A DNA stretch of 17,604 nucleotides from a virus, in UHGV virus genome UHGV-0097368; one strand, given 5' to 3'. Of the stretch, positions 9,984 through 13,483 are shown in pieces. Within the stretch, counting starts at the first letter, position 1; each line of letters opens with the position of its first letter. A model generated the notes under the pieces. It made no database searches. It saw only the letters and a list, made by a program, of their open reading frames with translations, and was not told the DNA's origin. The position numbers and the translations under genes were made by a program.

Positions 9984-10700
<717 letters not shown>

Positions 10701-10812: not shown

Positions 10813-11652
10813 ATGAAGAATGGTTTTTATGCGACTTACCGCAGCAAAAATAAAGGGAAAGATAAGCGCTCAATAAACCTGTCTGTTTTCCTTAATTCTC
10901 TGCTGGCTGATAATCATCACCTGCAGGTTGGCTCCAATTATTTGTATATTCATAAAATCGATGGAAAAACTTTTCTCTTTACCAAAACAAATGACAAGAG
11001 TCTGGTTCAGAAGATAAATCGCTCTAAAGCTTCAGTTGAAGATATTAAGAACAGCCTCGCAGATGACGAATCATTGGGATTCCCATCTTTTTTGTTTGTT
11101 GAAGGCGACACCATTGGTTTTGCCAGAACTGTTTTCGGGCCGACCACATCCGATCTGACAGATTTTTTAATCGGGAAAGGAATGTCATTAAGCAGTGGAG
11201 AGCGCGTTCAGATAGAGCCACTGATGAGGGGAACCACCAAAGACGATGTTATGCATATGCATTTCATCGGCCGAACAACGGTGAAGGTAGAAGCCAAGCT
11301 ACCTGTATTTGGCGATATATTAAAGGTCTTAGGGGCAACAGATATTGAAGGGGAGCTTTTTGACTCATTGGATATAGTCATTAAGCCAAAATTTAAAAGG
11401 GATATAAAAAAGGTTGCCAAGGATATTATTTTTAACCCGTCACCTCAATTTTCAGACATTAGCCTGCGGGCAAAAGATGAGGCCGGAGATATTTTAACAG
11501 AACATTATCTATCAGAAAAAGGCCATCTCTCAGCGCCTCTGAACAAGGTCACCAATGCTGAGATAGCTGAAGAGATGGCATATTGCTACGCAAGAATGAA
11601 AAGTGATATACTGGAATGTTTTAAAAGGCAGGTGGGCAAAGTTAAGGATTAA
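10813..11652 (+). CDS. rexA: RexA (Rex exclusion system sensor component)
   Basis: 279 aa MKNGFYATYRSKNKGKDKRSINLSVFLNSLLADNHHLQ..., lambda RexA. Confidence 0.95.
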   Translation: MKNGFYATYRSKNKGKDKRSINLSVFLNSLLADNHHLQVGSNYLYIHKIDGKTFLFTKTNDKSLVQKINRSKASVEDIKNSLADDESLGFPSFLFVEGDTIGFARTVFGPTTSDLTDFLIGKGMSLSSGERVQIEPLMRGTTKDDVMHMHFIGRTTVKVEAKLPVFGDILKVLGATDIEGELFDSLDIVIKPKFKRDIKKVAKDIIFNPSPQFSDISLRAKDEAGDILTEHYLSEKGHLSAPLNKVTNAEIAEEMAYCYARMKSDILECFKRQVGKVKD

Positions 11653-11667
11653 TTATCAGGAGTAATT

Positions 11668-12102
11668 ATGCGGAACAGAATCATGCCTGGTGTTTACATA
11701 GTAATAATTCCTTACGTTATCGTAAGCATTTGCTATCTCCTTTTCCGCCACTACATTCCTGGTGTTTCTTTTTCAGCTCATAGAGATGGTCTTGGGGCGA
11801 CATTGTCATCATATGCAGGAACCATGATTGCAATCCTGATTGCTGCCTTGACGTTTCTAATCGGAAGCAGAACGCGCCGACTGGCCAAGATTAGAGAGTA
11901 TGGGTATATGACATCGGTAGTTATTGTCTATGCCCTTAGTTTTGTTGAGCTTGGAGCTTTGTTTTTCTGCGGGTTATTGCTTCTTTCCAGCATAAGCGGC
12001 TACATGATACCCACTATCGCCATCGGCATTGCCTCTGCATCGTTCATTCATATATGCATCCTTGTTTTCCAACTATATAATTTGACCAGAGAACAAGAAT
12101 AA
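11668..12102 (+). CDS. rexB: RexB (Rex exclusion system membrane component)
   Basis: 144 aa hydrophobic MRNRIMPGVYIVIIPYVIVSICYLLFRHY..., lambda RexB. Confidence 0.95.
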   Translation: MRNRIMPGVYIVIIPYVIVSICYLLFRHYIPGVSFSAHRDGLGATLSSYAGTMIAILIAALTFLIGSRTRRLAKIREYGYMTSVVIVYALSFVELGALFFCGLLLLSSISGYMIPTIAIGIASASFIHICILVFQLYNLTREQE

Positions 12103-12128
12103 CCCGGCCTCAGCGCCGGGTTTTCTTT
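12103..12128 (+). terminator. Intrinsic terminator after rexB (tIMM)
   Basis: CCCGGC-CTCAGC-GCCGGG followed by TTTTCTTT immediately after the rexB stop. Confidence 0.8.
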
Positions 12129-12275: not shown

Positions 12276-12337
12276 AACCATCTGCGGTGATAAATTATCT
12301 CTGGCGGTGTTGACATAAATACCACTGGCGGTGATAC
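12276..12337 (+). promoter_or_regulatory. Left operator OL3-OL2-OL1 and promoter PL
   Basis: OL3 AACCATCTGCGGTGATA 12276-12292, OL2 TATCTCTGGCGGTGTTG 12296-12312, OL1 TACCACTGGCGGTGATA 12320-12336; -35 TTGACA 12310-12315; -10 GATACT 12332-12337. Confidence 0.92.
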
Positions 12338-12378
12338 TGAGCACATCAGCAGGACGCACTGACCACCATTGAAGGTGA

Positions 12379-12409
12379 GGTTCTTAAAAATTAAGCCCTG
12401 AAGAAGGGC
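12379..12409 (+). promoter_or_regulatory. nutL (boxB GCCCTGAAGAAGGGC; boxA position reads GGTTCTTAAAAATTAA)
   Basis: boxB hairpin at 12395-12409 is canonical; the preceding boxA-position sequence deviates from the CGCTCTT(T)A consensus at two bases. Confidence 0.8.
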
Positions 12410-12677
12410 AGCATTCAAAGCAGAAGGCTTTGGGGTGTGGTGAAGCCAGCTAGTCACTGGCAAGTGCTTACCTACTGTTGAGCGGTGAAGCGCTCCCAAC
12501 GCTAGCAATAGCGTGGACGAGATGGGGAGCCGCGGGCGATAAGGCCGCCATAACGCGCACGTTGTCGCATGGAAAAATCGCTGGGGTGCCGGTTATCCCC
12601 CTCCGAATGAGACTCAACAAGCTGGAGCTAGACTACCAGCCACCACACCACCAAAGCTAACTGACAGGAGAATCCAG

Positions 12678-13004
12678 ATGGATGCACAAACACGCCGCCG
12701 CGAACGTCGCGCAGAGAAACAGGCTCAATGGAAAGCAGCAAATCCCCTGTTGGTTGGGGTAAGCGCAAAACCAGTTAACCGCCCTATTCTCTCGCTGAAT
12801 CGCAAACCGAAATCACGAGTAGAAAGCGCACTGAATCCGATAGACCTTACGGTGCTGGCTGAATACCACGAACAGATTGAAAGCAACCTGCAACGTATTG
12901 AACGCAAGAATCAGCGCACATGGTACAGCAAGCCACGCAGTGAAATGGGTGTGACTTGTGTTGGTCGCCAGAAAATGAAATTAGGCAGCAAACCACTTAT
13001 TTGA
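12678..13004 (+). CDS. N: Antiterminator N (lambda-type, variant C-terminal region)
   Basis: 108 aa MDAQTRRRERRAEKQAQWKAANPLLVGVSAKPVNRPILSLNRKPKSRVESALNPIDLTVLAEYH...; Arg-rich boxB-binding motif at the N-terminus; the last ~25 residues differ from lambda N as I recall it. Confidence 0.92.
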   Translation: MDAQTRRRERRAEKQAQWKAANPLLVGVSAKPVNRPILSLNRKPKSRVESALNPIDLTVLAEYHEQIESNLQRIERKNQRTWYSKPRSEMGVTCVGRQKMKLGSKPLI

Positions 13005-13012
13005 GGTGAGAT

Positions 13013-13483
13013 ATGACAAAATCATGGAGCGTACCTTTTCCTGAATCAGAAACTGAACATGATGGAATGCCTGTTTTCTGGAGATTCCAGGCGACAGTTG
13101 AAGAAGATGGGATAAAAATATTCGCACTTCAATATATAGCTTTTCATCAGACAGAGCATTATGCATGGTTGGTTCCTGCGCATTGGATTGTTAATTTTAA
13201 ACCAGCACCAAATCAGTGGTTACAGGAATGGAAACAAAGGAGAAATAGATATGCAATTAAGAAAGTAGCAAAAAATGCAGAAAGATCTTTTGCATTCCCA
13301 ACGAAGAAACTTGCCATTGAGAGTTTATTGCGCCGGAAGAAATACCATTTAATGAGAATCAAACAAGATTTGGCTGTTGTATCAACTCTTGTTGATGGGA
13401 TGAAGAATATTGATACATCAACACCAGATATTGAATATAACTTTGGGCACAACCAAGAAACAGAAAATTGGGTATTTTATTAG
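13013..13483 (+). CDS. Hypothetical 156 aa protein (AT-rich moron at the position of lambda ral/sieB)
   Basis: Uninterrupted ORF starting 9 nt after the N stop with GAGGTGAG upstream; no family recognised; codon-level AT-richness far above the neighbours. Confidence 0.6.
   Translation: MTKSWSVPFPESETEHDGMPVFWRFQATVEEDGIKIFALQYIAFHQTEHYAWLVPAHWIVNFKPAPNQWLQEWKQRRNRYAIKKVAKNAERSFAFPTKKLAIESLLRRKKYHLMRIKQDLAVVSTLVDGMKNIDTSTPDIEYNFGHNQETENWVFY

Follow-up and report, generated by a model that had tools for sequence, protein, structure and literature searches.

The leader of the N gene in the DNA examined here is longer than that of phage lambda, and it carries a GC-rich segment between nutL and the N start codon. 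What this segment represents was the question addressed. A first-pass annotation had suggested either a regulatory RNA structure different from the RNase III site of the lambda leader or a small inserted element. The window, that is, the whole stretch of 17,604 nucleotides (virus genome UHGV-0097368), was therefore compared with lambda and related phages and prophages, and the leader was analyzed by alignment, folding, covariation and searches against RNA and protein families.

The N leader and its divergent segment

The window derives from a mosaic lambdoid phage or prophage and holds its immunity-left arm in an orientation opposite to that of the lambda map, with cI (9987-10700), rexA (10813-11652), rexB (11668-12102) and the tImm terminator (12101-12122). 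The best matches among complete phages (Sf101, mEp043 and HK544) spanned just 50-60% of it. The PL promoter (12310-12345, plus strand; -35 TTGACA at 12310-12315, -10 GATACT at 12333-12338) was found by a promoter scan and exactly matches the PL and transcript start annotated in HK544 and lambda; alignment to these annotated starts placed the first transcribed nucleotide at 12345. The positions of nutL (12379-12409, plus strand) were carried over from the HK544 annotation by alignment, and comprise boxA (12379-12386) and the boxB hairpin GCCCTGAAGAAGGGC (12395-12409), which had a pairing probability of 1.0. At the other end of the leader, the Shine-Dalgarno sequence AGGAG (12666-12670) and the N start codon (12678-12680) are identical to those of lambda and lie on the same strand. 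The N antitermination gene itself (12678-13004, plus strand), taken from the list of open reading frames, encodes 108 amino acids, with a C-terminal part unlike that of lambda N.

BoxA reads GGTTCTTA in the window, CGCTCTTA in lambda and GGCTCTTA in HK544. The T at 12381 was seen in the window alone among 29 loci with the same leader allele, and could weaken binding of NusB/S10.

The 5' untranslated region of N measured 333 nt in the window (12345 to the ATG at 12678), compared with 222 and 175 nt in lambda and HK542, respectively. The window leader is thus 111 nt longer than that of lambda, in agreement with the first-pass estimate of about 330 nt from a PL start near 12345 and an excess of roughly 100 nt. 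When the leaders of lambda, HK542, HK544 and Sf6 were aligned to it, near identity extended on the 5' side from the first transcribed nucleotide past nutL as far as GGGGUGUG, and on the 3' side from CACACCACCAAAGC across the Shine-Dalgarno sequence and into N. Relative to lambda, both sequence and length were non-standard at 12440-12643 alone (plus strand). This allele-specific stretch, which we refer to as the apical module, is 204 nt in the window and completely different from the 93 nt that it replaces in lambda and from the 43-45 nt or so at the same place in HK542.

The segment at 12470-12600, described at first reading as conspicuously GC-rich, has a GC content of 61%. The module as a whole has 58.3% GC, compared with 46.5 +/- 4.6% for all 204-nt intervals of the window. 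Every interval that reached 58.3% overlapped the region of 12440-12643, which is the most GC-rich stretch of the window. A scan for promoters and terminators detected no promoter-like or terminator-like site in the module on either strand; only PL, tImm and a look-alike at boxB were found.

A conserved basal helix below a variable top

Just downstream of boxB, GCAUUCA (12411-12417, plus strand) is predicted to pair with UGGAUGC (12679-12685), which takes in the UG of the start codon and the five bases of N that follow it. This 7-bp helix had a mean pair probability of 0.90 and was also present in the folds of lambda and HK542; its sequence is invariant, so that no covariation test is possible. 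Within it lies a 3-bp helix (12421-12423 with 12661-12663), followed by a basal helix of 17 bp with one bulged A, which paired with a probability of 1.0. The 5' strand of the basal helix, GGCUUUGGGGUGUGGUG (12426-12442, plus strand), is GU-rich and resembles boxC, and the 3' strand is CACCACACC-A-CCAAAGCU (12641-12658, plus strand), with the bulged A at 12650. Leader folds shared one order: the helix between the post-boxB sequence and the N start is outermost, the 3-bp and 17-bp helices follow, and a variable, branched top comes last. The same basal helix closed a variable top in all eight allele representatives that were folded, and P22 has an equivalent helix.

For covariation analysis, the N protein and the conserved 3' flank served as queries to gather leaders from IMG/VR, GTDB genomes and GenBank phages. 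Across 16 allele types, compensatory double changes were observed at 8 of the 19 predicted basal pairs. Examples include GGGGUGUGUG/CACACACCACC in lambda and GAGUAGCGCG/CGCGUUACUC in HK542, as well as GGGAUUGGAUG/CAUCCAAUCACC and GGACAGGCG/CGCCUGUACC in other alleles. Positions in the basal helix alignment were paired in 93% of cases versus 27-42% when the partner column was slid, and none of 500 shuffles matched the covariation score. The bulged A and the outer GCUUUGG/CCAAAGC were retained in almost all alleles.

By both alignment and folding, the segment falls where lambda has its RNase III site, as had been supposed from the first reading. The hairpin occupies 12426-12658, between boxB and the Shine-Dalgarno sequence, and agrees with its lambda counterpart in position, in the flanks on both sides, in the Shine-Dalgarno sequence and start codon, and in the pairing of the post-boxB sequence with the start codon. 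Like the lambda hairpin it has a long basal helix with a GU-rich, boxC-like 5' strand, and both strands are homologous to those of lambda: in the 5' strand, 14 of the 17 positions match lambda, as do the final 14 nt of the 3' strand, and the bulged A is shared. The two differ in the apical part, with 93 nt in lambda and an unrelated 204 nt in the window. The proposal of a different regulatory structure added beside that of lambda therefore gave way to a description in which the top of the same hairpin has been replaced by non-homologous sequence and the basal helix has been kept.

Within the module, the interior above the basal helix (12443-12640) is unpaired or branched in the predicted fold, with hairpins at 12445-12461, 12500-12513 and 12621-12640. 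Two small hairpins had been singled out at the start, GCCAG-CTAGTCA-CTGGC and CGCTA-GCAA-TAGCG. Both are present, at 12445-12461 and 12500-12513, respectively; however, the module without its basal stem was no more stable than dinucleotide shuffles (z = -0.6; 79 of 300 shuffles equaled it), and the hairpins are therefore what chance would provide in a sequence of 58% GC. Folding of the whole leader gave z-scores of -3.6 and -2.9. As the module alone was at the level of shuffles, this signal was attributed to the long basal helix.

Natural variation gave a similar picture of the interior. All copies of the module recovered from phages, E. coli genomes and the IMG/VR loci that were fetched, in a search for diverged copies, were at least 98% identical. 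No compensatory change was found among 10 natural variants of the module, which included helix-breaking substitutions and 1-nt indels, and some variants broke predicted interior pairs. With folding at the level of shuffles and no covariation in its interior, no specific interior fold can be claimed for the module. Polymorphism in the module was low: among 26 loci, 9 of 198 module sites were polymorphic, compared with 11 of 90 third codon positions of N (Fisher p = 0.024); for first and second codon positions the count was 6 of 180, a rate similar to that of the module. This is a weak hint of either some constraint or a younger origin.

Alleles at the same position in other phages

Among the leaders collected, the tops at this position fell into at least 13 unrelated classes at the similarity threshold used, in hairpins of 65-232 nt, of which the window class is the longest. 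Pairwise alignment of module interiors yielded no similarity above shuffled controls. Different tops were found at many IMG/VR loci whose N protein is 100% identical to that of the window, and the top is therefore a mosaic unit that is swapped while its flanks are conserved. One other allele, that of locus L085, has in common with the window allele the first 15 nt (GGGGUGUGGUGAAGC), the last hairpin stem and the 3' strand (GCUGG...CCAGCCACCACACCACC). In L085 this 3' hairpin, GCUGG-UUCGACU-CCAGC, is a look-alike of a tRNA T arm with the canonical T-loop UUCGACU; the loop in the window is AGCUAGACUA.

The window allele was present at 98% identity or more in phages HK544, HK633, HK446, Sf6, Sf101, mEp213, mEp043, vB_EcoP-720R6 and Bas106. 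Identity to sequenced phages with this allele was 98.7-99.2% over the leader and 99.5% over the module. It was also detected in 60 of 5426 complete E. coli genomes, at a median of one place per genome, and each of three E. coli loci that were inspected was an N leader or the deleted prophage remnant of one. The allele lies beside lambda-type operators in the window and HK544 and beside 434-type operators in Sf6; unlike HK544 or Sf6, the window combines it with lambda-type immunity and rexAB. The segment is unannotated in Sf6, HK544 and the other phages that carry it, with the exception of Bas106, where an automatic call placed a hypothetical open reading frame. The long leader is thus a recurrent natural allele of a well-studied hairpin. 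We found no description of a hypervariable N-leader slot in the searchable literature, to which neither the original lambda N-leader papers nor the study of lambda-immunity phages by Degnan et al. 2007 belongs; papers on prophage sRNAs place those RNAs at PR' moron sites rather than in the N leader.

The short HK542-type module belongs to a diverged family common to phages of E. coli and Salmonella (L004, L199, L124, L191 and L236; in Salmonella, for example, L255 and L247). Its second hairpin shows a compensatory change, CCGUG...CACGG versus CCAGA...UCUGG, around a conserved AGAUMAGCA loop, which suggests a structured, conserved small module. In one locus (L042, IMGVR_UViG_2534682287_000008), an extra small open reading frame with its own Shine-Dalgarno sequence lies between an HK542-type leader and the N start, and reads MNNEALKEMIAKLLEDARRIQEVEPNAGTQSRIDEAMKLLKGE.

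Most matches in the scan of genome contigs for leaders were lambda DNA contamination. Lambda N and its leader appeared in assemblies of unrelated organisms (Shewanella, Chromatium, Paenibacillus, Capnocytophaga, Desulfovibrio and others; L090-L104 and others), often on contigs of very low coverage, and these are almost certainly contaminating lambda DNA.

Probable regulation by RNase III and alternative explanations

How RNase III processes the lambda N leader, and with what effect on N synthesis, was reportedly the subject of work by Steege in 1987, Kameyama in 1991 and Wilson in 1997 and 2002. The cut in the lambda leader lies, as we assume, within the basal helix. We consider it probable that the segment in the window forms the top, or apical module, of the large N-leader hairpin that carries this RNase III site, that the leader operates by the mechanism of lambda, and that the module is most likely an exchangeable passenger. 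PL/OL, boxA and boxB of nutL, the basal helix, the start-codon helix, the Shine-Dalgarno sequence and the N start, the parts with regulatory work to do, are all lambda-like. Homology, helix and helix covariation were observed directly, whereas cleavage and regulation are predicted by homology with lambda.

By this homology, polymerase modified by N and Nus factors and tethered at nutL would repress N translation. Cleavage of the basal helix by RNase III would then separate nutL from the ribosome site and open the start region, releasing the module as a by-product. Since the basal helix loops the module out, the length of the module does not alter the route between nutL and the ribosome-binding site, which is that of lambda. 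The spacing between boxB and the helix, and between the helix and the Shine-Dalgarno sequence, is likewise as in lambda, and the lambda logic should therefore apply unchanged. The module itself would most likely be a tolerated passenger, one of at least 13 unrelated ones. In published work, N translation is described as repressed by nutL from a distance of approximately 200 bp, across RNA with a high degree of structure, and a spacer that is long but highly structured may be what makes nutL-mediated repression possible (PMC5725501).

A related arrangement is found in rrn operons, where the boxC helix is the RNase III leader-trailer helix around 16S rRNA and tolerates sequence changes if pairing is kept (PMC10250234). 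In the rrn leader, as in the N leader, nut-like boxA and boxB precede a GU-rich boxC whose complement lies far away; the two form a long helix, with boxC as its 5' strand. In both cases the intervening RNA is looped out by the helix, which in rrn is an RNase III substrate. The looped-out RNA differs: in rrn it is 16S rRNA, 1.5 kb in length and of known function, whereas in the N leader it is a variable sequence of 43-200 nt, followed by the start of the mRNA.

This comparison has a counterpart in the strongest alternative, in which the top of the hairpin is a slot for cargo and RNase III frees, from the strong early PL transcript, a stable non-coding RNA of approximately 200 nt with effects in trans on the host or rival phages. 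Small structured RNAs would then be what lambdoid and P22-like phages produce first from the early left transcript, much as rRNA is excised from the boxC helix. Part of the evidence for it comes from Salmonella P22-like phages and prophages, in which a tRNA-like gene lies inside the leader hairpin of N/gene 24. It was located in L177 (370-450, minus strand) and in Salmonella phage P6 (L242, OP265889.1; 706-787), where it is unannotated, and it also occurs in L284, L297, L309, L266, L270, L306, L314, L349 and others; at least 14 IMG/VR loci have it. The L177 copy scored 34.8 bits on the Rfam tRNA model, for which the gathering score is 29. ARAGORN, run on the window and 18 loci, called a tRNA-Pro in this allele, and among the alleles covered, only that of L177 and P6 was called. 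The tRNA-like RNA has an acceptor stem that is continuous with the basal helix, a D arm (GCUCAGCAGGUAGAGC), a T arm (ACCGGUUCAAGUCCGGU) and an oversized anticodon region, and between copies the T stem shows a compensatory change from G-C to A-U.

A second allele of the slot corresponds to an RNA that has been detected. P22B is a 96-nt sncRNA reported from P22-infected cells and vesicles (PMC13397905). It maps to positions 301-396 of the P22 locus (L245, NC_002371.2), that is, to the apical module and 3' strand of the gene-24 leader hairpin. P22B and the tRNA-like allele occupy the same slot of the homologous gene-24/N leader, with a homologous basal helix, GGUUUGG.../...CCAAAGCC. As P22 accumulates a 96-nt RNA from the slot and another allele is tRNA-like, a passive passenger is not the sole reading. 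The lower polymorphism of the module relative to the synonymous sites of N is a further counterpoint to passivity, and the ends shared with L085 link the window allele to a T-arm look-alike.

For the window module itself, however, the evidence runs against a trans-acting RNA. The module has no sequence similarity to P22B or to the tRNA-like allele, has no reported RNA product and fails tRNA models: no Rfam tRNA or tmRNA match was obtained at E <= 10, and ARAGORN called no gene in the window. Searching the window leader against the covariance models of Rfam 15 at E <= 10 likewise gave no match in the segment; the three matches in the leader were at chance level (E 0.13-5.1) and all lay outside it. 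The interior was no stabler than shuffles, natural variants break its helices or carry 1-nt indels without compensation, all copies found are too alike for a fold to be tested, and no target or partner is known. We regard the release of a functional RNA from the window allele as unlikely, at perhaps one chance in several, and favor the exchangeable passenger. If the slot did hold cargo, the window module would be one of at least 13 interchangeable cargoes, including the tRNA-like RNA and P22B.

The module could also be a distinct cis-regulatory sensor, such as a riboswitch, a thermosensor or a protein-binding platform, that adjusts N translation or the access of RNase III in a manner unlike lambda. 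Its location within a regulatory hairpin fits this idea, its size and GC content could change the folding kinetics of the basal helix, and the diversity of alleles could mean different regulatory set-points. No Rfam cis-regulatory family was matched at E <= 10, however, and there was no structural signal beyond composition. That the same slot holds 13 unrelated modules, ranging in length from 43 nt (HK542) to approximately 200 nt, speaks against a critical part for the top in the core mechanism, and we consider a sensor improbable.

Two other explanations have very little probability. A small protein could be read from a TTG open reading frame of 60 amino acids at 12478-12660, in a frame open for 68 codons and automatically annotated in Bas106 (as a hypothetical protein) and a few other genomes, but the TTG lacks a Shine-Dalgarno sequence, open frames are expected in GC-rich sequence, 5.8 billion proteins yielded near-identical predicted copies and no diverged homolog, no Pfam or PHROG family was matched, and natural variants (L007 and L041) carry +1/-1 indels within the frame. 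A small mobile or repetitive element inserted in the leader (a MITE, a REP/ERIC-like repeat or an IS remnant), the second of the original proposals, would be equally hard to sustain: the foreign-looking composition and an imperfect inverted repeat near the ends (12446-12454 with 12617-12625, 8 of 9 positions complementary) could point to one, but there is no target-site duplication, the 60 of 5426 E. coli genomes that contain the sequence have it at a median of one place each, inspection of three loci showed an N leader or the remnant of one, and lambda sequence has been replaced, not interrupted. The module thus failed the tests for a tRNA or tRNA-like element, a curated RNA family, a protein-coding gene and a mobile or repetitive element.

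The top is a non-coding mosaic unit that is bounded by covarying helix strands and swapped among phages with identical N genes. A helix-bounded, exchangeable top explains how leaders of 175 to 333 nt can share one regulatory geometry. The allele series also provides natural swap variants with which the effect of loop size on N autoregulation by the tethered antitermination complex can be tested, and it raises the question whether the excised tops, be it the tRNA-like RNA, P22B or the 200-nt module, themselves have a function.

The N gene of the window contains a mosaic junction of its own, at 12948-13004, where the C-terminus also departs from that of lambda N. Among 26 loci with the window leader, 54% of sites segregated in the last 57 nt of N versus 6% in the first 270 nt. 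Directly 3' of N, where lambda has other genes, lies an open reading frame of 156 amino acids (13013-13483); the same protein is annotated as hypothetical in E. coli (WP_000167595.1).
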